Source: an uncultured Gammaproteobacteria bacterium (GTDB taxonomy: Bacteria; Patescibacteriota; Patescibacteriia; Magasanikbacterales; UBA922). From it: a stretch of 64,000 bases of DNA. Positions 14,314-64,000 of this stretch are shown one piece after another. Position 1 is the first letter of the stretch, and every line of letters starts with the position of its first letter. The position numbers were made by a program, and so were the translations under genes. The DNA lies in contig CAYUTO010000004.1 in the NCBI GenBank assembly GCA_964447765.1, forward strand, positions 93,790 through 157,789, given 5' to 3'. Below the pieces are notes generated by a model. It saw nothing but the letters and a program-made list of their open reading frames with translations. It did no database searches and was not told the DNA's origin.

Positions 14314-16003
14314 ATACCAACATGATTGAGGTTGGTAGTGCTTGATGTAATATATGTATCATATCAATAATGCGTGGGTATTGTAAATCAAGCCAAAAAT
14401 TATCAATAACCAATACCGGACGATGGGTTACTAGAGAATGCAGTGTGTGCAATGCAAAAGCCTGCAGCGGATTTTTGAGTACCCTATTTGCAGAAGTAGT
14501 ATAATTTCCATCGACTGAAACAAGTTCTACAATAGAAGGATACCGATTCATAATAAGCAGTGCCGAAGCAAATTCTTCCGTAGTAATATCATCTTTCACT
14601 TTACCCATAATACACTCCGCGAGAGTGCGATCTACCCGAAAATTGGGATCAAAAAAATACACATCAGTGCACACATTCTGCCAGCCGACAAACTCAAATC
14701 GTTCAGCATCAACCGTAATTTTTATCGCACGCGGATTATACGCAGCAACACCCGCAAATAATTTTGCCAATGAAGTCTTCCCGGTCATATTGGTACCAAA
14801 AAATAATACACGCTCACCCGGTTTAAAATCAAAACGCATATTTCGATAATACTCTCCTTCTGGAAAAAGCTTGGTCTTGTGACTACGGAAACCAAGTGTT
14901 TTTTCTCTCAGGTGAAAAGCCGTGTCTTTCACATAATTCTTACCTGATTGTACCACCGTCAAAAAAAGGCCCAACCGAGCAGGAAAAAGATATAACCCCA
15001 CTCGTGTAGCTTCGTTCAAGGCACGCGAAAAATAAATAAGTAACAATATAAATAAAAATCGTTCACCAATATGTTCGGTACCTAAAAAAGAAAAAAACGT
15101 TGTGGGGAAAAAATGGCTAAAAATCGAAACAACAATCAAGAAAATAAACACCATTTTAAAACCGAGACGTATCCAAATATCTCGACGTATACGAAAATAT
15201 GAATCAAACCAAACCAGCTTATCAAACTTTTCGAGAATGCTCCGCTCCTGCCCAAACATTTTTAAAAAACTAATATTAGTAGCATTGAAATCTATTTCTC
15301 TAATAATTTGAGAATAGAATGTCACCTCTTGCGAAACATAAAATCGAGATACGAGGTACCCACCAAAAAATAGAAGCACTGATGCAAGAATAAACGCGCC
15401 ACTCACCACAAGAACATGGTAATTACTCACATATGAAATCATGAGTATAATTCCCAAATACATGAGCCAGCGCCAAAATCCAAAAAATGTATTAGAGATA
15501 CCCTGTGTAACCAAAGGAATGTGATACGAAATCTTTGCAATAAGACTCGCGTGTTGTTCTGAGGATGTATGCTGAGGTGAACGACCAAGAAAATTCTTAA
15601 AAATACGACGCCTAATACTATTCGTCAAAAGAACGACAAATGATCGCTCATATTTGATAGCAAAAAAAGAATTGATCAAAAATACACCAATAAGTACTGA
15701 AAACAATAATATAAAATGACTGGAGAGCCATAGGCGAGTCCCGTCTGAAATCTGATCGCGACTAAAAATAATCAACGCAGATTCAATAATACCTTGGGAA
15801 AACAACAAAACCAACAAACCAATAATCAACAAAATATGTTTTTTTGAAAAATCCCGAAGATACTGATAATGATCTTTCGTAAATAAAACCTCCCTCCATT
15901 CACGACTCTCTTTTTTCGCCAACCGAAGAAGCCGAGCCTGCTCCTGCATCTTCTTACTAAAGATATGTGTGACTTTGTGTGTATTATTCTCGACCTCGTC
16001 CAT
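14237..16003 (-). CDS. ABC-exporter-like membrane protein with degenerate nucleotide-binding domain
   Basis: About 6 predicted TM helices followed by a Walker A GTNMTGKTS. The ABC signature is absent and Walker B reads VLVIDN, with the catalytic Glu replaced. The start overlaps the RT stop by about 20 nt. Confidence 0.6.
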   Translation of the reverse strand: MDEVENNTHKVTHIFSKKMQEQARLLRLAKKESREWREVLFTKDHYQYLRDFSKKHILLIIGLLVLLFSQGIIESALIIFSRDQISDGTRLWLSSHFILLFSVLIGVFLINSFFAIKYERSFVVLLTNSIRRRIFKNFLGRSPQHTSSEQHASLIAKISYHIPLVTQGISNTFFGFWRWLMYLGIILMISYVSNYHVLVVSGAFILASVLLFFGGYLVSRFYVSQEVTFYSQIIREIDFNATNISFLKMFGQERSILEKFDKLVWFDSYFRIRRDIWIRLGFKMVFIFLIVVSIFSHFFPTTFFSFLGTEHIGERFLFILLLIYFSRALNEATRVGLYLFPARLGLFLTVVQSGKNYVKDTAFHLREKTLGFRSHKTKLFPEGEYYRNMRFDFKPGERVLFFGTNMTGKTSLAKLFAGVAAYNPRAIKITVDAERFEFVGWQNVCTDVYFFDPNFRVDRTLAECIMGKVKDDITTEEFASALLIMNRYPSIVELVSVDGNYTTSANRVLKNPLQAFALHTLHSLVTHRPVLVIDNFWLDLQYPRIIDMIHILHQALPTSIMLVFANNSNDYLSYTQRHELGTTIRSIS

Positions 16004-17210
16004 AATGAAAATTCTTATAATACTGGTACAGTGAAACAATACCCACGCCCCCCATCACTTCCTTCAACAATCGTCGATGCTGCGGAGAATGTTGTCCATA
16101 GTAAAATTCAGTAAGAATATGAAAAAAATGTTCAGACACTATCCTTATTTGATTCACATCATTCACCTGTGATTTATTCTTGATTATCTCCTGAAATCGA
16201 GTATTAAAATTTGTATAGTTGCTACGCATGATATTTTTGAGAATACGTTTTTTCTTTGCTTCCGACTCATGCTTATAAAGCAGTAAACTCTTCCACTCCG
16301 ATTCAATACGGGCAATAAACCCATCTTCAAGACTAATACGTCCATTCGAAAAGCGATATCCCAAAAAAGAAAAAGTGTCTCTAGCAGACCCAATAAACAG
16401 TTTATCATTATTAAGCTTCAACCCCCTTTCATGGAGTTTAATTTTCATCTCTTTCTCTATAACTTTCAATTTTTCTAAATCCGGATCAAAGAGCGCAAGA
16501 TCATCCCCTACTCGTATATAAAAATCAGACTGACTATCATATCTGAAATCAAGGTCTGAAAGATAGAGATTAGCAAACAAGGCGATTAATGGCACACCTT
16601 GCACAATACCCTGACCGATCGTTTGTATCGAACCACGATCATACACCTGATTGAATATAAAAAGCTTCAATACTTCCACTGTTTCAGTATCCGGAAATAA
16701 TACTTGTAATTTTTCGACTAAATAATCCCGATCAATCAGACTCGAATAATTTTGCAAATCAATCACGAGGCAATGGTCCGTGGTAAAACGCCTGCGATAT
16801 CGACGAGCAAATAAATATGACGCGACATGTGGTGGTCTGCCCGGACGATAGGAAAACAAACGATCAGAAAAACTGCGTTCAAAAACGGGCAATACCACAC
16901 GATAAATTGCCTGTGCCTTGATACGCTCCTTGAGCGTATAAATAAAAATCTCACGAGTCTTGGTAGGATTATTTTTCTTTGGAATACGCAATAAAACAGC
17001 CGGTTCAATGGCTTTGGTATTAATTAACTCATCCTGAATAAGGCTTAGAAGATCATGCGAATTGACCTCATAATCCAATATTTTTTTATGGTCGAGGCCG
17101 TAATATCGAGATTCCTTACTGTCTTTGGCAAATTTTTGAACAATCTCTAGATATGCGGCTTCCAAATTACGCTTGGATATGATTTCTCTAAACATACAAT
17201 ATACAATCAC
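15984..17210 (-). CDS. Free-standing reverse transcriptase (group-II-intron-like/DGR-like RT family, no intron RNA context)
   Basis: RT motif 0 NLEAAY; motifs 1-2 IPKKNNPTKTREIFIYTLKERIKAQAIYRVVLPVFERSFSDRLFSYRPGRPPHVA; motif 3 VIDLQNY; motif 4 QGVPLIALFANLYLSDLD; motif 5 YIRVGDDLALF (catalytic DD); motifs 6-7 LKLNNDKLFI...FSFLGYRF. About 120-aa thumb-like C-terminus. Confidence 0.8.
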   Translation of the reverse strand: MIVYCMFREIISKRNLEAAYLEIVQKFAKDSKESRYYGLDHKKILDYEVNSHDLLSLIQDELINTKAIEPAVLLRIPKKNNPTKTREIFIYTLKERIKAQAIYRVVLPVFERSFSDRLFSYRPGRPPHVASYLFARRYRRRFTTDHCLVIDLQNYSSLIDRDYLVEKLQVLFPDTETVEVLKLFIFNQVYDRGSIQTIGQGIVQGVPLIALFANLYLSDLDFRYDSQSDFYIRVGDDLALFDPDLEKLKVIEKEMKIKLHERGLKLNNDKLFIGSARDTFSFLGYRFSNGRISLEDGFIARIESEWKSLLLYKHESEAKKKRILKNIMRSNYTNFNTRFQEIIKNKSQVNDVNQIRIVSEHFFHILTEFYYGQHSPQHRRLLKEVMGGVGIVSLYQYYKNFHYGRGRE

Positions 17211-17218
17211 TCCCTAAT

Positions 17219-17247
17219 ATATCTGACAGAAATCTATCAGATATTGA
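17219..17247 (-). promoter_or_regulatory. Stable hairpin (9-11 bp stem, 4-nt loop) just upstream of the RT ribosome-binding site
   Basis: Inverted repeat taatctgacag-aaat-ctatcagatatt located about 15 nt upstream of the RT start codon region. Confidence 0.4.
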
Positions 17248-17472
17248 TTATTTCCATTGAGGTCTTCCAAATAGCTTAACAACCTATTTGTTCTTTTCCT
17301 AAAATCGTCAAATTTCATGAAGCTAATGCCGATAGCTTTTCTTTTCATGAACCCGGACGACTGCCGACATCCTGAAACTCAGGTTTTAGGGAATGATTGT
17401 AAAGAGCACGTTAACCCCAAGAATAGCATATCTAGAAAGACAGGTAAACGCCAAATCTATGTTTCACACCCT

Positions 17473-17500
17473 TGATTTTTCCAGAAAATCTGCTAGGCTC
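17473..17500 (+). promoter_or_regulatory. Candidate sigma70-like promoter for the PNP gene (TTGATT-16nt-TAGGCT)
   Basis: -35/-10-like hexamers about 60 nt upstream of the AGGAGA RBS. Confidence 0.3.
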
Positions 17501-17558
17501 TCTCCATCACTCTTGCATATAGAGCAACGTGATCACAACCCAATCAGGAGATAGACGC

Positions 17559-18416
17559 ATGAAAAAAGTGTATACGCAGCTTCAGGAAACCGTGACACAC
17601 CTCGGCAAACGCCTCGGTAAGAAGCAAAGGAAACCACAAGTCGGCATCGTACTCGGCTCAGGTCTCGGAGAGTTCGCAAAGAGGCTCAAGGACCCCGAGT
17701 CGTTCCGCTACCAGGACATCCCTCACTTCCCCGAATCCACCGCTCCCGGCCACGCCGGAACCCTGTGGTTCGGCAAAGTCGGGAGTGTGCGAGTGGTCGT
17801 GATGCAGGGACGTCACCACTACTACGAGGGCAACACCCCGGAGCAGTGTGTCTATGGTCTCCGCACCATGATCAGCATGGGCGCGAGTACCATCATTCTC
17901 ACGAATGCGGCAGGCACGATCGATGATCAGGTGAGTCCGGGAGATCTTCGGATCATCTCCGACCACATCAACATGACCGGAGAAAGCCCGCTTCGTGGAC
18001 ACAATGACACGCGACTCGGACAACGCTTCGTGCCCATGAACGGTGCGTACGATGCAGATCTCCGAGCGCATGCGCTGAACACATGGAGTGAGGATCCGAA
18101 TGCAACGAATTCGATCAACCTTCACAGAGACGGTGTCTACGCGCTCATGGCCGGACCCGAGTACGAGACTCCTGCTGAAATCAACCGACTGAGAAATGCC
18201 GGCGCCAACCTCGTGGGAATGTCAACGGTCTTCGAGACCATCGCGGCCCGTCACATGGGCGCTCGCGTGTTCGCGATGTCGTGCGTCACGAACTACGCTG
18301 CAGGTGTGAAAGGCAGTGTACCAAACGAGCAGGAGGTGCTCGACACGGCACAGCAGTCGTCGAAGAAGTTCGTCGACTTCATGACACACTTCGTCGAGAC
18401 GATGCCACTCTCCTGA
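17559..18416 (+). CDS. punA: Purine nucleoside phosphorylase (PNP-I/PunA family), horizontally acquired (GC-rich)
   Basis: PNP family motifs GIVLGSGLG, ILTNAAG, MAGPEYET, GMSTVFE; AGGAGA RBS before the internal ATG at 17559; G/C-ending codons dominate, unlike neighbouring genes. Confidence 0.85.
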   Translation: MKKVYTQLQETVTHLGKRLGKKQRKPQVGIVLGSGLGEFAKRLKDPESFRYQDIPHFPESTAPGHAGTLWFGKVGSVRVVVMQGRHHYYEGNTPEQCVYGLRTMISMGASTIILTNAAGTIDDQVSPGDLRIISDHINMTGESPLRGHNDTRLGQRFVPMNGAYDADLRAHALNTWSEDPNATNSINLHRDGVYALMAGPEYETPAEINRLRNAGANLVGMSTVFETIAARHMGARVFAMSCVTNYAAGVKGSVPNEQEVLDTAQQSSKKFVDFMTHFVETMPLS

Positions 18417-18432
18417 AGTAGGCGGATGGGGG

Positions 18433-18461
18433 GGGGCAGGGTGCAAAAGCACTCTGCCCCC
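18433..18461 (+). terminator. GC-rich terminator hairpin gggggcagggtgc-aaaa-gcactctgccccc followed by an A/T tract
   Basis: 13-bp stem with one mismatch, directly after the PNP stop codon. Confidence 0.6.
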
Positions 18462-18564
18462 ATCAATTCATTATAAAAAAACAGAGCATTGAAGCTCTAT
18501 TTTTATTTTATCTACATTCAATTATTATCAAAGCTCCACGTCGTAGATAATGTTCGAACTTATT

Positions 18565-35069: not shown

Positions 35070-35083
35070 AATCTAAAATAATG

Positions 35084-35157
35084 TAGGCCTAGATGGACTT
35101 GAACCATCGACCCCAACGTTATAAGCGTTGTGCTCTAACCACCTGAGCTATAGGCCC
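35084..35157 (-). tRNA. tRNA-Ile with anticodon UAU (AUA-decoding)
   Basis: 74 nt, hand folded: acceptor GGGCCTA/TAGGCCT, D-stem GCTC/GAGC, anticodon stem CAACG/CGTTG with loop CTTATAA, T-stem GATGG/CCATC; body closely resembles canonical tRNA-Ile(GAU). Confidence 0.7.
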
Positions 35158-51426: not shown

Positions 51427-52036
51427 ATATTTCGGTAAGTGTTTTGAAATACGGTAAATTACTTTGTCTGTATTCTTCTTCACCAATTGACGCTGATTTC
51501 TTGAGGACAATATGCAGATTAGGAAATGCATTTTTAATAAGCAAACTCTCTCCTACTTTGTCATTGATAAACCACGTCTCTTCTAGCTTTTCCCCTACTG
51601 ATACAAGTTCGTGGATAATATGCTCTTTACTATCCTGTACCATAAACATTCGGTCAAAATACTCTGAAACTCCCGACCCTTTTACTTTTAATTCCTGAAA
51701 ACTTGCTTCACCGAGACTGAGAAGCACCAATGGATGTTTCAGATCTTGTAACTTTTGCATAAATTCTACCGTATCAAGAAATAGAAACTCACGCAATCTC
51801 TCCCCTGTAGTTTCCTGTAATGCAGCAAGTACTTTTTCTTTTGAATATCCTCTGAGAGCAAGCAATTCAACATGTCGTTCATTGGAATAGGAGAATAAAT
51901 CATTCTTTTTCGAGGCTTCGATATAGGTTTCCTGATAATCATGCTCAGATACTCCAGCTTTCAACAATGATTCAATCCGCGATTTCTTGAAATCATGAGT
52001 ATTAAAAAGCGTATCATCAAAATCTATGATAAACAT
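51398..52036 (-). CDS. HAD-superfamily hydrolase
   Basis: Motif I FIIDFDDTLFNT. Confidence 0.55.
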   Translation of the reverse strand: MFIIDFDDTLFNTHDFKKSRIESLLKAGVSEHDYQETYIEASKKNDLFSYSNERHVELLALRGYSKEKVLAALQETTGERLREFLFLDTVEFMQKLQDLKHPLVLLSLGEASFQELKVKGSGVSEYFDRMFMVQDSKEHIIHELVSVGEKLEETWFINDKVGESLLIKNAFPNLHIVLKKSASIGEEEYRQSNLPYFKTLTEIYGYIEQKNR

Positions 52037-52040
52037 ACAG

Positions 52041-52775
52041 TTAAATTTTTTCCCACAATGAATCAAATACTGATTTTTCAGTTCGATAAATTCCTTCATT
52101 CTCAATCACCACTCCCACAGGTTGTTTCTTTGCATCAATCGAGATAAACGCCGTTTTCCCTGGATAGATAATAATATACGTAGATAATTCTTCGCTTGAG
52201 GGAAGTTGTTTGCGCTGATCAAGGCCGCGCAATTCTCCCCTCTCTCCAATCGCAATTGCTCGAACCGAAATTCCTTTGGCAATCCGCGCATCACTAAAAG
52301 TGGGAAACTGTTCGTACAAAAATTCTTTTACACCTTCAGCCGAATAAATCCGATACATTTTATCTTCACTCTGTTCACACGTGGTAAGCACATCTTCGAG
52401 AATACTATTAAGCTCGCCTGCTGGTACATAGCGAGCGACCGGACGATCACCACCTTTGTGATGCAACGCAGCAAGTTCGGGTATCATTTTCTCAAGCTCT
52501 TTCTCAGCCCGCTCAGCTACCTGCTTTTGTTCGCGGACAAGTGACATGAGATGGTCTGGATGTTCAGCTACAAAATACTGTTTAGTATCCTTGTGATAGA
52601 AGGTCACAAGCCCGTGTTCCTCAAGCCACTTGAGCGCATCATAGGTACTCCCCCTATTTAAGCCACTATGAAGAGCAATCGAGCGAACTGAACTAGGGCC
52701 CAAAGATAACAAAGATTGATAGATTTGGGCTATTTTGTCAGACATTCCTAATTTTTTGAATATTTCAGTGTTCAT
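52041..52775 (-). CDS. TrmB-family transcriptional regulator
   Basis: N-terminal winged HTH (IYQSLLSLGPSSVRSIALHSGLNRGSTYDALKWLEEHGLV) plus C-terminal TrmB-like domain. Confidence 0.6.
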   Translation of the reverse strand: MNTEIFKKLGMSDKIAQIYQSLLSLGPSSVRSIALHSGLNRGSTYDALKWLEEHGLVTFYHKDTKQYFVAEHPDHLMSLVREQKQVAERAEKELEKMIPELAALHHKGGDRPVARYVPAGELNSILEDVLTTCEQSEDKMYRIYSAEGVKEFLYEQFPTFSDARIAKGISVRAIAIGERGELRGLDQRKQLPSSEELSTYIIIYPGKTAFISIDAKKQPVGVVIENEGIYRTEKSVFDSLWEKI

Positions 52776-52858
52776 AAATACAATACACTTAGCATAATTT
52801 AAAGTATACAAGTTGTCAATTTTTTATCGACACTACATGTTAATAAGGTACGAAATAC

Positions 52859-52887
52859 TTGACAAAATGGCTTATTTATGCTATACT
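52859..52887 (+). promoter_or_regulatory. Consensus sigma70 promoter TTGACA-17nt-TATACT
   Basis: Perfect -35 and near-perfect -10 hexamers with a 17-nt spacer, about 165 nt upstream of the GC-rich ORF. Confidence 0.6.
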
Positions 52888-52894
52888 CTGCTGT

Positions 52895-53051
52895 TTACTA
52901 AAATACAGAACTTTACAAAAAGCTATAGATTAGTCCGTTTCCCCTGGAGTATCCGGTAATACTACGGGGTACAGCAGGGAAAACGGACAGGTAGACGGGA
53001 TTCCCCCGTGCATACCTACACATGGTAGCTAGTCCCGATAGGGAGGTGTCT
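52895..53051 (+). promoter_or_regulatory. GC-rich structured 5' leader; long imperfect hairpin plus SD-sequestering hairpin (candidate riboswitch/attenuator, class unknown)
   Basis: Outer stem gtccgtttcccctg/cagggaaaacggac (13 of 14 bp) enclosing agta...tact and cccc...gggg pairings; acggg-attcc-cccgt hairpin; ucccgauaggga hairpin overlapping the GGGAGG RBS. Confidence 0.4.
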
Positions 53052-53456
53052 ATGGTCGCTCAGCAGTACCAGTTCCAGATCCAGGCCACCGGCAAGAAGG
53101 TGGAGCTCAAGGACCTCGAGAACCGCACGAACGCCAAGCGCAACGCCTTGGCCAAGCGCGACGAGAACAAGCGGACGGGGCAGAAGCCCCGGGAGCTCCG
53201 ACTGCCCCCGCAGCTCGAGCCCAGGGGTCCCTACATCGACCGTGAGCTCATGAAGCCGCCGCTCGAAGGCGCCCTCGGCAAGGCGATCAAGCAGGCGGTC
53301 GTCGAGACCGCCAAGCAGGTCGCCCCCGACCTCGAGGAGGTGGGACGCATGGCCACGGCGGGCCGGGACAAGAAGGGTCACTTCGTGCCCCGCGAGACGA
53401 AGACCAAGGCCCAGGAGGCCTACGAGCTCTTGAAGCTCACCCGCCTCGCCGAGTAG
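53052..53456 (+). CDS. Hypothetical lysine/glutamate-rich protein, horizontally acquired (very high GC3)
   Basis: GGGAGG RBS 7 nt upstream of ATG; nearly every codon ends in G/C, while the opposing-strand ORF is L/G/R-rich antisense noise. Confidence 0.5.
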   Translation: MVAQQYQFQIQATGKKVELKDLENRTNAKRNALAKRDENKRTGQKPRELRLPPQLEPRGPYIDRELMKPPLEGALGKAIKQAVVETAKQVAPDLEEVGRMATAGRDKKGHFVPRETKTKAQEAYELLKLTRLAE

Positions 53457-53587
53457 ATCAGCCGCAACATCACCACATCCGAGACCTAGGAGACCTCGGA
53501 CCAGCTTGGCCACTGACTTGCAAAAGTTCAGTGGCCATCATCTCAGGATCACATCAAAATTGGTGGATCGTGAGATGAAAAATAAAA

Positions 53588-53614
53588 AAACAGCTTAATT
53601 AAATTAGGCTGTTT
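53588..53614. terminator. Bidirectional terminator aaacagc-ttaattaaattag-gctgttt
   Basis: Perfect 7-bp stem, A-run/T-run flanks; between convergent genes. Confidence 0.55.
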
Positions 53615-53651
53615 TATTTTTTCATTACTAGACAACCAGAAAACCAGATAA

Positions 53652-54728
53652 CTATGCAACCGTCACTTCCTTACACAAATACACATCCTGAATCGCGTTC
53701 AATATTTCAACTCCTTCTTTCAGAGGTTTTTCAAATGCTTTTCTTCCGGCAATAATTCCCATTCCCCCTGCTCGCTTATTAATGACAGCCGAACGAACTG
53801 CCTCTCGCAAATCAGATTCACCATTACTCTCTCCTCCAGAATTAATCAGTCCAATTCTGCCTGCATAGGAATTGAGCACCTGATATCGACACAAATCAAT
53901 CGGATGTTCAGTCGCAAGCTCTGTGTACATTCGAGGATCATACTTTCCAAAGCTGCTCTTGCCTTTATTAAGGGCAAGATACCCCCCATTCAACGTTGGT
54001 AATTTTTGCTTCACAATATCAGCGCCAATAGTCGCTCCCAGATAATTTGCCTGGCCCGTAAGATCAGCTGATGAGCTATAATCTACTTTACCTACCGTAA
54101 ATCCAGCATTCCGCACATAGCACCACAGTACCGTAAACATTCCTTTTTCATGTGCCGCTGCAAATGCTTCAGACACTTCAGTAATCTGTCGCTTGGATTC
54201 AGGGGAACCAAAATAAATCGTTGCACCAATTCCACGCGCCCCCATCTCATGAGCTTTTTTTACAGTTGTAAACATGGTCTGATCGTAGTCATTCGGAAAA
54301 CGAAACAGATCATTGTGATTCAGCTTCACAATAAATGGAATTTTACTCGCATATTTCTTACTAAGGATTGCAAGTGTACCGTACGATGAAGCAACTGCAT
54401 TACATTTTGCTTCAAGCGCAAGTTTCACAATATTCTCTGGATCAAAATAATCTGGATTCGCAGAAAAACGCGCACCCGCAGTATGTTCAATCCCCTGGTC
54501 TACAGGTAAAATTGATAGGTATCCTGTTTTTTTCAATCTTCCAGACTTTCGTAAATGAATCAGATTATCAATCACCTTGTGCGATCGATCAGAAATAGAA
54601 AAAGTGTTGTAAAAAAAATGTTTCGAAGGAATATGCAATTTTTCTTTTGCAATTTTTGGAGTAGAAAATTTGAGCAGGCTCTCTGCTTCGTCTCCGAGAA
54701 TGTCAGAAATACGAGAAATGTCGAGCAT
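53652..54728 (-). CDS. Class I fructose-bisphosphate aldolase (archaeal-type DhnA/FbaB family)
   Basis: DeoC/LacD-type TIM-barrel aldolase pattern with Schiff-base lysine region (FIVKLNHND, GARGIGATIYFGS). Confidence 0.7.
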   Translation of the reverse strand: MLDISRISDILGDEAESLLKFSTPKIAKEKLHIPSKHFFYNTFSISDRSHKVIDNLIHLRKSGRLKKTGYLSILPVDQGIEHTAGARFSANPDYFDPENIVKLALEAKCNAVASSYGTLAILSKKYASKIPFIVKLNHNDLFRFPNDYDQTMFTTVKKAHEMGARGIGATIYFGSPESKRQITEVSEAFAAAHEKGMFTVLWCYVRNAGFTVGKVDYSSSADLTGQANYLGATIGADIVKQKLPTLNGGYLALNKGKSSFGKYDPRMYTELATEHPIDLCRYQVLNSYAGRIGLINSGGESNGESDLREAVRSAVINKRAGGMGIIAGRKAFEKPLKEGVEILNAIQDVYLCKEVTVA

Positions 54729-54793
54729 AAAAAAATGATAGTACATATATACTATCATTTTTTATCGTTTTCTACAAAATAAAATACACAACA

Positions 54794-55060
54794 TTATTCA
54801 GTATCTTCCACACGTGCTACCGCATGCGCCCACATTTCATCCAATTCATACTCCAATTGCAATTCATCAGAATGATCCGCAAACCACTGTTCAAATGCCA
54901 CTTTCAATTCATCAACATCAGAAGCATTTTCAAGCGCGTCTTCCAAAAGCGCGTATTTCTCTTCATGCGACCGAGCTAGCCCATCTTCGATTTCTTCAAA
55001 TGTTTCTCGAACATGATCAAGGATAGCGGTCTTTACGGTATCGTATTGAAAATCAGACAT
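54794..55060 (-). CDS. Hypothetical acidic 88-aa protein
   Basis: ORF with native composition; no recognisable domain. Confidence 0.4.
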   Translation of the reverse strand: MSDFQYDTVKTAILDHVRETFEEIEDGLARSHEEKYALLEDALENASDVDELKVAFEQWFADHSDELQLEYELDEMWAHAVARVEDTE

Positions 55061-55143
55061 AAAAATATTTTAAATAATCAAAGCAGGTCACAATATACCA
55101 CACTGACTGAACTTTGCAAGCCCTCCCCAGATGTGGATAATAA

Positions 55144-55177
55144 TATAATAGAGACAGGTCACAGCCTGTCTCTATTA
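55144..55177 (-). terminator. Terminator ataatagagacagg-tcacag-cctgtctctattat downstream of znuA
   Basis: Perfect 14-bp stem. Confidence 0.6.
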
Positions 55178-55179
55178 TA

Positions 55180-56094
55180 TTATTTTTGATTCTCTACAAT
55201 GGTCTGTACATTATACCCGATCATATCAAGATAGCTGGCCCGCTCACCCGATCCTTCAGGATCAAGGGTCGCGATTGTGAGCCCATTATCATTCGCAAAT
55301 GTTTCAATTGCTGATGCTGAAAATTGTGGTTCAAGATAGAGAGTATTTACTTCATGTTCGAGAACTTCTTCTTTCAAATCAATCAGATATTGTGGAGTTG
55401 GCTCACGTCCAGGGAAAGGTTCAAATGTAGCAACAATCTCGAGCCCATATCGGCGTGCAAAATATTGAAACGCGTCATGAAACGTTACTAACTTTCTATT
55501 TTGTAATCCAGACAACGCTCTAATCCATTCAAAATCTTTGCGCTCAAGCTCATCTTTAAAAATTTTTGCACGAAGCGCAAAGTCGTTTGCATGTTCAGGA
55601 CTAATGAGTGTAAGTTCTTCGACAATAGTATCGACCATAATATAGGCATTGGTCGGATCCAACCAATAATGAGGATCAATCAACCCATGTCCATGATCAT
55701 CGTGTTCTCCCTCTACCTCTTCGCCCTCATGTTCATGAAATTCAGCTGTAGGATACAATTGAATATTCCGATCAAGAGTAATTGTCTGAACATCAGGAAG
55801 AGAAGCAACGAGTGATGACACCCATGAATCGAGCCCATGACCAACCTGGAAAATACGTGATGTATCTTTAAGGGCCTTAATTGAAGACGGTGTCGGCTCA
55901 AACGTATGAGGACTTGCCCCAGGAGGTACAATCAAAACAACCTCTACATCTTCACCACCGACAATTCGAACGAGATCGTAAATAGGAAAAATAGTTGCCG
56001 CAACTTTTGGCTTATCAGAGCCAGCAATACTACAACCCGCGCCAGTGAACAAAAAAACTACAGCAAAAAATAAAAAAATACGCATCTTATTCAT
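55180..56094 (-). CDS. znuA: Zinc/metal ABC transporter substrate-binding lipoprotein (ZnuA/TroA family) with His-rich loop
   Basis: Lipobox-like LFTGAGCS; His/Glu/Asp-rich loop HEHEGEEVEGEHDDHGHG; cluster-9 SBP pattern. Confidence 0.8.
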   Translation of the reverse strand: MNKMRIFLFFAVVFLFTGAGCSIAGSDKPKVAATIFPIYDLVRIVGGEDVEVVLIVPPGASPHTFEPTPSSIKALKDTSRIFQVGHGLDSWVSSLVASLPDVQTITLDRNIQLYPTAEFHEHEGEEVEGEHDDHGHGLIDPHYWLDPTNAYIMVDTIVEELTLISPEHANDFALRAKIFKDELERKDFEWIRALSGLQNRKLVTFHDAFQYFARRYGLEIVATFEPFPGREPTPQYLIDLKEEVLEHEVNTLYLEPQFSASAIETFANDNGLTIATLDPEGSGERASYLDMIGYNVQTIVENQK

Positions 56095-59196: not shown

Positions 59197-59610
59197 ATGG
59201 AAAATAGACCAAAAGTGGGTGTTGGAGTAATTGTGATTAAAGAAAACAAAGTGCTTTGTGCCAAAAGAAAAAATGCCCATGGTGAAGGTACGTGGCAATT
59301 CCCAGGCGGTCATCTAGAATTCAAAGAATCTTGGGAAGATTGTGCGCGACGGGAAGTAATGGAAGAAACTGGAATATCTATAAAAAATATTAGATTTGGT
59401 ACCGTAAGCAATGATATATTCGAGGGAGAGAATAAACACTACATTACCCTGATTATGATTGCAGACCATAATACAGGAGAACCACAAATTTTAGAGCCTG
59501 AAAAATGCGCGGGTTGGAAATGGTTCAAATGGGAAGAGTTACCAGAACCTCTTTTTCTTCCAATAGTAAATATAGTTAAAGCGGGCTTTAATCCTTTTGA
59601 TGTAAATTAG
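59197..59610 (+). CDS. NUDIX hydrolase
   Basis: Nudix box GGHLEFKESWEDCARREVMEETG. Confidence 0.75.
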   Translation: MENRPKVGVGVIVIKENKVLCAKRKNAHGEGTWQFPGGHLEFKESWEDCARREVMEETGISIKNIRFGTVSNDIFEGENKHYITLIMIADHNTGEPQILEPEKCAGWKWFKWEELPEPLFLPIVNIVKAGFNPFDVN

Positions 59611-59639
59611 TAAATAAAAAAATTTAAAATTACAAAAAA

Positions 59640-60209
59640 ATGAAAATAACCGAATTTATTAAAAAAACATTAATTGAAGATATAGAAAAAATACAACAAG
59701 TACACGGGTATGCTTATATTTCTTTTAGTCTTATCAGCCAAGGCATCGAATTATTAGGAAGTCTCATAGACAGTTACGACTTTACTGAACCCAATAAAAG
59801 CAAAAAAAGATTTAATAACGCTCTAAAAGAATTTTTTCCTGAAAAATATAAAGACAAAAATCTTTATGATAACTTAAGGTGTGGTCTTCTACATATTTTT
59901 TTACCACAAAAAGATTTGGTACTTAGCGAACAAAAAGAAACTATTCTTAAGAATCAAAAAAACTTAAAAAAATATAAACAGAAGGAAACGGGGCAAGAAG
60001 TTACGCTGATAATTGCCGAAGATTTTTTCAATGATTTTAAATACGCTTGTAATACTGTAATCGCTTTAATTGAATCTGAAGAGATTTTTGACAAATATAG
60101 TGATTTAAACAAAGCGTCAGAAAATAAAAAAAATATTCTGCTTTTAAAGCATGAAATCTTAAATACAGAAATAAAATTAACAAAAATTTCAAAAAAGAAT
60201 ATTAATTAG
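59640..60209 (+). CDS. Hypothetical Lys-rich protein, extremely AT-rich coding sequence
   Basis: 189-aa ORF with noticeably lower GC than its neighbours; no recognisable domain. Confidence 0.4.
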   Translation: MKITEFIKKTLIEDIEKIQQVHGYAYISFSLISQGIELLGSLIDSYDFTEPNKSKKRFNNALKEFFPEKYKDKNLYDNLRCGLLHIFLPQKDLVLSEQKETILKNQKNLKKYKQKETGQEVTLIIAEDFFNDFKYACNTVIALIESEEIFDKYSDLNKASENKKNILLLKHEILNTEIKLTKISKKNIN

Positions 60210-60584
60210 TTTAGCATCATCCGATAATCTATCGCCATATTTATTCTTGACTTCATTGCCACGAGCAAAAAATAAATAAAAAACTAATACTAAATTAGCA
60301 ATTGGAATAAACAATCCTAAAGAAACCCAACCAGATTGATTTAAATCATGTAATCTGCGAATAACAAGGGAGAGGAAAATAAAAAAATAAACAATGGCTG
60401 GAATAATAATTATATTTTCAATTGTACCTTCAGAAAAAGAGGTATATTTTTTTAAAAGAAAATCAAGTAAAAAAAACAAAAGTGATCCTAATATTAAAAT
60501 CACAAAACCTTTCAAATATTGTTTTCGAGTAACTCTCCCTCTAAAAGAGTTCTGACTTACTTTTCCATCTTCAATTTCCTGCAT
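60189..60584 (-). CDS. DUF805 family membrane protein
   Basis: RRLHDLNQSGW motif and 3-TM layout typical of DUF805. Confidence 0.65.
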   Translation of the reverse strand: MQEIEDGKVSQNSFRGRVTRKQYLKGFVILILGSLLFFLLDFLLKKYTSFSEGTIENIIIIPAIVYFFIFLSLVIRRLHDLNQSGWVSLGLFIPIANLVLVFYLFFARGNEVKNKYGDRLSDDAKLINILF

Positions 60585-60688
60585 ATTTAATATTAAAATA
60601 TCACAGCATCATCTTAACACTAAGTTTAAATAAATACAAAAAGCCACTTTTTAAGAGGCTTTTTTGACAAACAAAAAACTGAGTACAG

Positions 60689-60805: not shown

Positions 60806-60874
60806 CTCAGTTATAATTTTGAAGTAATAAACACAATAATTGCAGTAGCATTCTTCGAAACACAACTCTGTGTT

Positions 60875-64000
<3,126 letters not shown>

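Follow-up and report, generated by a model that had tools for sequence, protein, structure and literature searches.

We describe here a short transcription unit found in a 64-kb stretch of a Candidatus Magasanikbacteria genome (contig CAYUTO010000004.1 of assembly GCA_964447765.1; "the window" hereafter means the whole of this 64,000-nt stretch), whose only gene, an open reading frame (ORF) termed ORF134, keeps practically all of its third codon positions G or C in a host genome of about 40% GC. The unit is a cassette of about 0.75 kb, lying between the genes of a class-I aldolase and of a TrmB-like regulator, with HAD-like, nucleotidyl-transferase and ZnuA genes as further housekeeping neighbours. 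As read from its sequence, the region 52859-53625 is a complete transcription unit, running from a promoter through an AT-rich terminator. Three DNA sequences were used for comparison at this locus: L001, a 969-bp Logan contig of SRR34217543, which carries a divergent allele; L002, the closest species-level relative in GTDB, whose aldolase is 88% identical; and L084, an independent Logan assembly of SRR12712865. After one mislabelled metagenome-assembled genome, the best matches of the aldolase are from Candidatus Magasanikiibacteriota, and the close relatives of a purine-nucleoside phosphorylase (PNP) encoded elsewhere in the window, as well as P0003, a distant relative of the ORF134 product, are annotated as Candidatus Magasanikbacteria. 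All features are listed in Table 1.

Table 1. Features of the ORF134 locus and of the first GC-rich island, in window coordinates. UTR, untranslated region; pN and pS, proportions of nonsynonymous and synonymous differences.
Feature	Coordinates	Strand	Basis or remark	Difference from L001
TrmB-like regulator gene	52041-52775		neighbour, divergent from the cassette	
DNA present in the window and L001, absent from L002	~52834-53586		alignment; boundaries uncertain by tens of nt	
Promoter: -35 TTGACA (52859-52864), 17-nt spacer, -10 TATACT (52882-52887)	52859-52887	+	sequence match	5%
Presumed 5' end of the transcript, AU-rich and unstructured	52895-52931	+	start position presumed	25%
5'UTR stem-loop P1, long irregular hairpin of ~20 bp	52933-52988	+	fold, inverted repeat	3% (3/89), P1 and P2 together
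5'UTR stem-loop P2, GC-rich stem and pentaloop	52989-53017	+	identical in L001	see P1
Shadow ORF, 165 aa, not a gene	53016-53513	-	composition, block-wise pN/pS	
Shine-Dalgarno sequence GGGAGGTG	53041-53048	+	sequence	AGGAGGTG in L001
ORF134, protein-coding, 134 aa	53052-53456	+	GC by codon position, relatives, in-frame indels	29%
3'UTR stem-loop A (CCGAG...CUCGG)	53478-53500	+		4% (1/23 positions)
3'UTR stem-loop B (GGCCACUGA...UCAGUGGCC)	53507-53537	+	perfect 10-bp arms, 53507-53516 and 53528-53537	stem invariant
3'UTR stem-loop C (CAUCUCA-GAUC-CAUCA...UGGUG-GAUC-UGAGAUG)	53539-53577	+	both L001 substitutions on bulged bases	5%
Unpaired spacers and linkers				17-67%
AT-rich bidirectional intrinsic terminator	53587 to ~53615-53625	both	common to the convergent aldolase gene	0%
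DeoC/LacD class-I aldolase gene	53652-54758	-	convergent neighbour	
PNP gene (PNP_UDP_1), first GC-rich island	17559-18416	+	Pfam match	

The ORF134 region is a marked compositional outlier: GC content is 65.0% at 53001-53500, against 34-45% in ordinary 500-nt stretches, and the only other GC outliers are 17501-18500 (56%), corresponding to an island at about 17.5-18.5 kb, and the rRNA genes. GC at codon positions 1/2/3 is 0.69/0.39/0.95 in ORF134 and 0.64/0.37/0.99 in its L001 allele, to be compared with a median third-position GC content (GC3) of 0.32 for the 49 window ORFs that reach 150 aa or more, native genes spanning 0.22-0.44. An initial annotation of the window had called attention to a GC-rich island, to a plus-strand frame using G/C-ending codons almost exclusively, to a GGGAGG motif ahead of it and to a GC hairpin following it; all four observations are confirmed, and the island is far beyond chance. 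Its "perfect" promoter stands as to hexamers and 17-nt spacing, but matches the consensus at 11 of 12 positions, with the addition of a TG extended -10 element; to the single hairpin, a perfect 10-bp stem, two more 3' stem-loops and a terminator are added. ORF134 was listed from an upstream ATG, as 53022-53456, where the public annotation also begins (144 aa); since this ATG is missing from L001, we place the start at 53052.

The frame open on the opposite strand, already regarded as noise in the initial annotation, is codon-aligned with the sense frame, is open when the latter lacks TTA, CTA and TCA codons, and has a GC content by position of 0.92/0.40/0.65. When the window is compared to L001 within the conserved blocks of the gene, the sense frame shows pN 0.11 below pS 0.27 (p=0.014), while the antisense frame shows pN 0.16 above pS 0.10; composition and block-wise rates thus rule out the antisense ORF as the gene. 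Only two indels separate the ORF134 alleles, both of 3 nt and in frame, and start and stop are kept. Taken together, the period-3 composition, the in-frame indels, the block-wise rates and the ordered layout of promoter, Shine-Dalgarno sequence and terminator indicate that plus-strand ORF134 is almost certainly a real coding gene. The gene caller behind the Logan proteins picked the shadow ORF in L084 (2122-2619, corresponding to 53016-53513 of the window, minus strand), so that searches of protein databases may miss relatives of GC3-saturated genes.

The promoter is the top-scoring site within the 2.5 kb from 52000 to 54500, and both hexamers and their spacing are unchanged in L001. The 5' end of the presumed transcript appears weakly constrained, because of its high divergence from L001. 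The two stem-loops that follow are different in this respect: P1 carries a single substitution, located in the apical loop, and the few differences found over P1 and P2 are to be compared with 17-48% in the adjoining unpaired stretches. The GGGAGG core of the Shine-Dalgarno sequence (53041-53046) lies 5 nt ahead of the ATG. Downstream of the gene, the linkers flanking stem-loop A differ from L001 at 48-67% of positions, and in stem-loop B every change falls within the loop. The terminator is also present, in a shorter form, at the empty site of L002.

Folding energies, evaluated against dinucleotide shuffles, are in line with these patterns: the 5'UTR (52895-53060) folds at -64 kcal/mol (z = -5.7), the 3'UTR reaches z = -8.5, and the whole transcript z = -10.1 in the window and -8.4 in L001, while ORF134 alone yields z = -1.85 in both alleles. 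Within the non-coding parts of the transcript, L001 differs at 4 of 166 paired and at 37 of 160 unpaired positions (Fisher 5e-9). Since differences avoid paired positions, the stems appear to be under purifying selection, and the UTR hairpins are probably functional. Rfam offers no matching family, whether for the leader or for the unit as a whole, and this holds both at its gathering thresholds and at E<=10; a covariance model found no other copy of the leader in the window and 20 loci of the candidate phyla radiation (CPR), and no further copy of ORF134 or of its UTRs was found by blastn-short and tblastn over all loci compared. Within the unit, the promoter search revealed none in antisense orientation. 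A long-range pairing between the Shine-Dalgarno/start region and the 3'UTR, proposed by RNAalifold, gained no support from controls, its duplex energy being no better than that of shuffled sequences or of other ORF windows.

Divergence within ORF134 has a peculiar distribution. Invariant and strongly diverged blocks alternate inside near-identical flanks; the conserved ones correspond to motifs that the distant P0003 protein retains, and the variable ones are near-neutral (pN 0.46, pS 0.36). Over the whole gene, dN, the nonsynonymous divergence, is 0.37, and dS, the synonymous one, 0.41 (dN/dS 0.89). Differences at codon positions 1 and 2 are dominated by exchanges between G/C and A/T (34/42 and 26/32, respectively), and those at position 3 by exchanges between C and G (37/44); in non-coding regions and host flanks, C-G exchanges account for only 2 of 48 differences. 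Since they dominate at position 3 only, the constraint is specific to the codon phase, requiring a third base that is either G or C. GC3 is thus kept at 0.95 and 0.99 across about 30% nucleotide divergence, with no amelioration toward the host. The unusual and well-documented trait of this locus, for which two DNA alleles are known, is that GC3 stays at 0.95-0.99 in a CPR genome of 40% GC, with a protein that changes almost freely and flanking RNA stems that do not. Two general causes could be set aside. Translational optimisation in the host does not fit, G/C-ending codons not being preferred in native genes, an rplS-like gene included (GC3 0.22-0.44); selection for mRNA structure or for GC in general does not fit either, given the marginal fold of ORF134 alone and the free exchange between G/C and A/T at positions 1 and 2.

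With 12% K and 9% R, the ORF134 product is basic; it is also hydrophilic, and inspection of its sequence reveals neither a signal peptide nor a membrane segment. A word-indexed search of 5.8e9 clusters retrieved only the protein itself and P0002, encoded by L001 (58% identity); a full HMMER search over 1.84e9 (1.84 billion) representative proteins added one more, P0003 (145 aa, E=4.7e-9, 36-38% identity), and a profile search found no further relatives. The family therefore consists of three proteins, all linked to Magasanikbacteria, with two DNA alleles. Common to the three are the motifs MVAQ, AKR(D/E)ENKRTGxKPRELxxP and GRxxxGxFxP(R/K), the remainder being hypervariable. No homologue or match was found in GTDB representatives (DNA scan, N-terminal patterns only), in IMG/VR (ORF and leader DNA patterns), in JGI metagenomes (protein motifs and leader DNA pattern) or, by tblastn, in INPHARED phages and PLSDB plasmids, and literature searches turned up no account of a locus of this kind. 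Pfam, PHROGs, NCBIfam, PADLOC and the sequences of PDB gave no significant profile match, in keeping with the absence of a recognisable domain noted initially. The AlphaFold2 model (predicted local distance difference test, pLDDT, 72.5; 87-92 at about residues 81-130) features five helices and a disordered middle, and Foldseek found no significant neighbour (best E=4.2 in PDB and 0.42 in BFVD). P0003 (MBP9731986.1, locus tag KBD29_00845) probably comes from GCA_018061425.1, a close relative of the window genome, as judged from the proximity of accessions: the PNP protein of that assembly is MBP9732416.1, 430 accessions later. If so, a genome about 92-93% identical in the PNP and reverse transcriptase (RT) genes holds an allele only 36-38% identical, beyond neutral drift at a dS of about 0.25.

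In L002, aldolase stop and TrmB start are only about 125 bp apart, and the spacer shows no trace of the cassette, containing only a TrmB operator-like palindrome and the terminator, about 30 nt apart. Since this site is empty, the cassette was either gained in the window lineage of these ultra-small Magasanikbacteria or lost in that of L002. The self-contained, compositionally foreign-looking unit, described initially as a foreign island, is thus very probably an insertion or an accessory gene, judging from these alignments. A search for repeats found no target-site duplication and no terminal direct or inverted repeats at the cassette, and a transposon-like insertion was consequently rejected; mobility genes are also missing from the locus, the neighbours being housekeeping genes and the nearest tRNA gene 18 kb off. 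A palindrome-like sequence, TTGTCAAT-TTTTTA-TCGACA (52814-52833), separates the promoter of the divergent TrmB-like gene from that of the cassette. Conserved in L001 as well as at the empty L002 site, this sequence probably serves as the operator of the regulator itself.

We lean towards an explanation of the whole locus as a lineage-restricted accessory expression cassette, lodged between the aldolase and TrmB-like genes of a Candidatus Magasanikbacteria genome, which carries an orphan ORF under a phase-specific G/C constraint. As its signals suggest, the near-consensus extended -10 promoter would drive the synthesis of an mRNA of about 730 nt, probably at a high level, in which the coding part is bracketed by two 5'UTR and three 3'UTR stem-loops, and followed by the intrinsic terminator. 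The stem-loops may stabilise the mRNA and/or bind a protein, possibly the encoded one itself, for post-transcriptional control. The translated product would be a small, basic, mostly helical cytoplasmic protein, with a few conserved motifs and a remainder changing almost neutrally. As for GC3, active maintenance in situ seems somewhat likelier than a decaying donor signature: neither a foreign origin nor host codon preference would account for its persistence during divergence, and a donor signature would need a donor pool invisible to the largest available searches, since HMMER over the 1.84e9 representatives found none.

Several points weigh against this explanation. The distance between the window and L001 genomes is estimated from about 90 nt of host coding flank. 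At conserved four-fold degenerate sites, exchanges between C and G are in 3-fold excess in ORF134 relative to the PNP gene (11/38 vs 7/78, p=0.012), which could reflect a deeper-diverged, imported allele rather than evolution in situ, and third positions locked on G/C, with free first and second positions, are exactly what divergence in a high-GC genome would give. Whole-gene dN/dS fails to separate the two strands (sense 0.89, antisense 0.84). The stems are invariant between the two DNA alleles, hence without support from covariation, and the paired positions are those assigned on the window's own sequence. The functional reading is drawn from the sequences of two DNA alleles and three proteins, one of which, P0003, is known as a protein only; gene callers sometimes choose the antisense frame, and protein-database searches can overlook relatives. 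Finally, the top BFVD neighbours of the model are two phage proteins, one of them a DUF5681 (probability 0.69, E ~0.5), a match that is not significant and constitutes a lead only.

The main rival explanation, which we consider rather unlikely, is repeated import: ORF134, with its GC-rich leader and hairpins, would be cargo from an unsampled high-GC pool, be it a host bacterium, a phage or a plasmid, in which the alleles diverged before being imported, or swapped at this locus by recombination via the conserved UTRs, and GC3 would be the mutational signature of the donor. The composition of the gene is indeed typical of genomes of at least 70% GC, and position-3 changes confined within G/C, with positions 1 and 2 free, are those expected in a high-GC background. 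The alleles are, moreover, far more diverged than host genes, and the cassette is missing from L002. A high-GC donor, as proposed in the initial annotation, is nonetheless not borne out by the searches: over the 1.84e9 representatives only the three Magasanikbacteria-linked sequences were found, and phages and plasmids (tblastn), IMG/VR, JGI metagenomes and GTDB (N-terminal patterns only) were all empty. The view of GC3 as a passive donor signature is likewise at odds with its persistence over about 30% nucleotide divergence, and with position-3 changes being mostly C-G exchanges. Junctions and AT-rich promoter are common to L001 and the window, pointing to one insertion event; Lys, at 12%, is unusually abundant for high-GC proteomes; and mobility gene, target-site duplication and terminal repeats are all lacking. 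The annotation itself had named widespread homologues of the same composition in low-GC relatives as evidence against its view; one such homologue does exist, in L001, but the family is far from widespread. The initial interpretation is therefore supported only in part.

The annotation had also matched the composition of ORF134 to that of the PNP island, suggesting the same kind of donor. To evaluate this, the PNP gene was compared to its homologues in L083 (GCA_018061425.1, 93% nucleotide identity) and L082 (88%). GC3 is 0.69-0.71 in all three PNP lineages vs 0.95-0.99 in ORF134, dN/dS is 0.14-0.15 vs 0.89, and the share of C-G exchanges among third-position differences is 7-13%, transitions being dominant, vs 84% (37/44); the native RT gene resembles PNP in its dN/dS (0.13). 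A further comparison was restricted to conserved four-fold codons having G or C in both sequences, where C-G exchanges were counted: they amount to 11/38 (29%) for ORF134 between window and L001, while control genes show 7/78 (9%) for PNP against L082, 2/84 (2%) for PNP against L083 and 4/47 (8.5%) for RT against L083. The 3- to 12-fold excess, favourable to import, is significant both against the L082 comparison (Fisher, 0.012) and against the two PNP comparisons pooled (1e-4). Because GC3, dN/dS and classes of silent changes all differ, the two islands are unlike in composition and in evolutionary mode, and the match proposed between them does not hold.

No donor is evident for PNP either, a gene under ordinary purifying selection: beyond three close relatives (94%, 89% and 66% identity), even its nearest homologues reach only about 50% identity, and they are scattered over diverse phyla. 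Similar islets occur in other Magasanikbacteria, namely a guanylate-kinase-like gene (gmk-like; L003, 1766-2416) and a PfkB-like gene (pfkB-like; L004, 8716-9888), each of 65% GC in a background of 45-47%; GC-rich acquisitions are thus common in Magasanikbacteria, a point in favour of the import scenario. Like ORF134, each of the three islets is a one-gene compositional outlier in a genome of 40-47% GC, with a preference for C-ending codons (CTC over CTG). The PNP islet also features its own upstream promoter-like region, and its stop codon gives way directly to a GC stem-loop and then to an AT-rich terminator; promoter-like region and stem-loop are conserved among its relatives, the loop being altered in L082. 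In contrast to the orphan ORF134, the three islets encode metabolic enzymes with thousands of homologues, and their GC3 is 0.70-0.79.

A second alternative, which we judge quite improbable, is programmed diversification: silent cassettes located elsewhere in the genome would overwrite segments of the expressed copy by gene conversion, or else this copy would undergo targeted hypermutation, perhaps dependent on an RT. The vlsE and pilE expression sites, which are GC-rich, and the targets of diversity-generating retroelements (DGRs) would be analogues. As in Borrelia vlsE and Neisseria pilE, the locus is GC-rich relative to the genome, with invariant and variable blocks alternating between conserved flanks; pN in the variable blocks is at least as high as pS; and, as with DGRs, a hypervariable coding region coexists in the window with an RT gene (15984-17210). 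However, neither silent cassettes nor any second copy or fragment of ORF134 or its UTRs are found in the 64-kb window, nor is a pair of template and variable repeats. The RT belongs to another class (UG26/UG17-like) and is 36 kb away. The differences are not adenine-specific, as DGR mutagenesis demands: they comprise indels and all substitution classes, with mostly C-G exchanges at position 3. The product, cytoplasmic-looking and lacking signal peptide and membrane segment, is an unlikely object of antigenic variation, and ordinary purifying selection suffices to explain conserved blocks that match P0003 motifs.

Still less probable is that the unit acts as a structured non-coding RNA, or that the UTR elements alone matter, the long ORF being a by-product of GC-richness. 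Long open frames do arise on several frames of GC-rich DNA, whole-gene dN/dS is near 1, the transcript folds far beyond shuffles and the UTR stems are much better conserved than ORF134. This would leave unexplained, though, the period-3 composition (GC2 about 0.38, GC3 0.95-0.99), the confinement of indels to multiples of three, the conservation of Shine-Dalgarno sequence, ATG and stop, and the excess of pS over pN in conserved blocks; the fold of ORF134 alone is marginal, and Rfam has no match. Highly structured mRNAs with conserved 5' and 3' stem-loops are also known from type I toxins of the hok/sok kind, where the pairing proposed by RNAalifold, although no better than chance, would find a parallel; the ORF134 product, with its 134 hydrophilic and basic residues, differs from the short hydrophobic toxins, and an internal antisense promoter is lacking. 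All in all, the DGR, antigenic-variation, hok-like and non-coding RNA readings fail their defining tests or lack support.

An assembly chimera or a contamination, joining a high-GC fragment to a low-GC contig, could be suspected from the abrupt GC change and from the metagenomic origin of the assembly, and had been contemplated in the initial annotation, but is excluded for practical purposes, since the independent L084 is 100% identical to window 51898-55634 over 3737 bp, the single contig L001 spans both of the junctions around a divergent allele, and promoter, Shine-Dalgarno sequence and terminator are coherent with ORF134.

Returning to the accessory cassette under phase-specific constraint, its weakest step is the role of the product. 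Because ORF134 is orphan, patchily distributed, inserted, apparently strongly expressed and hypervariable, we tentatively suggest a nucleic-acid-binding protein involved in genetic conflict, which would either originate from a mobile element or phage, or counter one, or else have a partner cell as its target; as a guess from sequence features, this is doubtful. Among the closest known analogues are the "morons" and the anti-defence or immunity genes, small stand-alone orphan accessory genes of mobile elements and phages. ORF134 is likewise small and stand-alone, has its own strong promoter and terminator, is inserted between housekeeping genes, is patchy and fast-evolving, and has no detectable homologues outside its family. 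It differs in that its surroundings contain neither phage or mobile-element genes nor an integrase, repeats or a duplicated target, and in having no match in phage, plasmid and IMG/VR collections; moreover, such accessory genes are usually AT-rich relative to their host, while ORF134 is GC3-saturated.

A more specific proposal, frankly speculative and in our opinion unlikely, is that the G/C lock at third positions is an adaptation for decoding where A/U-ending codons fail, the product being a conflict or host-interaction effector that co-evolves with a variable target. Possible conditions of this kind are the action of ribosome-dependent mRNA interferases specific for A-rich codons or of AU-targeting RNases, and decoding within a high-GC partner cell of the bacterium, which is an episymbiont.

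If the lock is maintained in situ, ORF134 would provide an unusually clean natural instance of strong selection at synonymous sites against both mutational bias and codon preference of the host, and would point to an unrecognised need, be it in decoding, in the survival of the mRNA or in use across cells. In CPR/Patescibacteria, only weak selection is expected; should the adaptive reading of the lock be true, synonymous selection would suffice to keep GC3 close to 100% in a genome-reduced bacterium of 40% GC. If repeated import is instead the case, the locus would be a hot spot of recombination and would betray a hidden donor, which might be the host bacterium or one of its viruses; finding the hosts of uncultured CPR lineages is a long-standing problem. 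The accessory biology and host interactions of CPR organisms are almost unexplored, and the cassette, in which the gene of a hypervariable orphan protein is flanked by five conserved stem-loops and preceded by a consensus promoter, is a compact, testable module.

Other features of the window are worth mentioning. The RT gene (Pfam RVT_1, 408 aa, 15984-17210, minus strand) is divergent from PNP and 36 kb from ORF134; its best PADLOC matches are the generic RT model PDLC01136 (2e-38), followed by the DRT-type RT_UG26 (9e-35), a Cas1-RT fusion and RT_UG17. The 350-nt spacer between RT and PNP (17211-17558) contains an inverted repeat, ATATCTGA...TCAGATAT, at about 17218-17245, which, on the basis of sequence, could be part of an RT-associated non-coding RNA; the RT-PNP arrangement is kept in L083.

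The 23S rRNA match (60872-64000, minus strand) takes 3129 nt to span positions 132-2925 of the model, some 335 nt more than the model itself, an excess length that suggests an insertion or intervening sequence; such insertions are frequent in CPR rRNA genes. Directly upstream of the 5S rRNA gene, the region 59500-60600 is an outlier in the opposite direction, being very AT-rich (25-28% GC), and its ORFs (59640-60209, plus strand, and 60189-60584, minus strand) have a GC3 of 0.16-0.21. Finally, ARAGORN identified a tRNA-Ile with anticodon TAT (35083-35157, minus strand); AUA is more commonly read by a CAT-anticodon tRNA carrying the lysidine modification.

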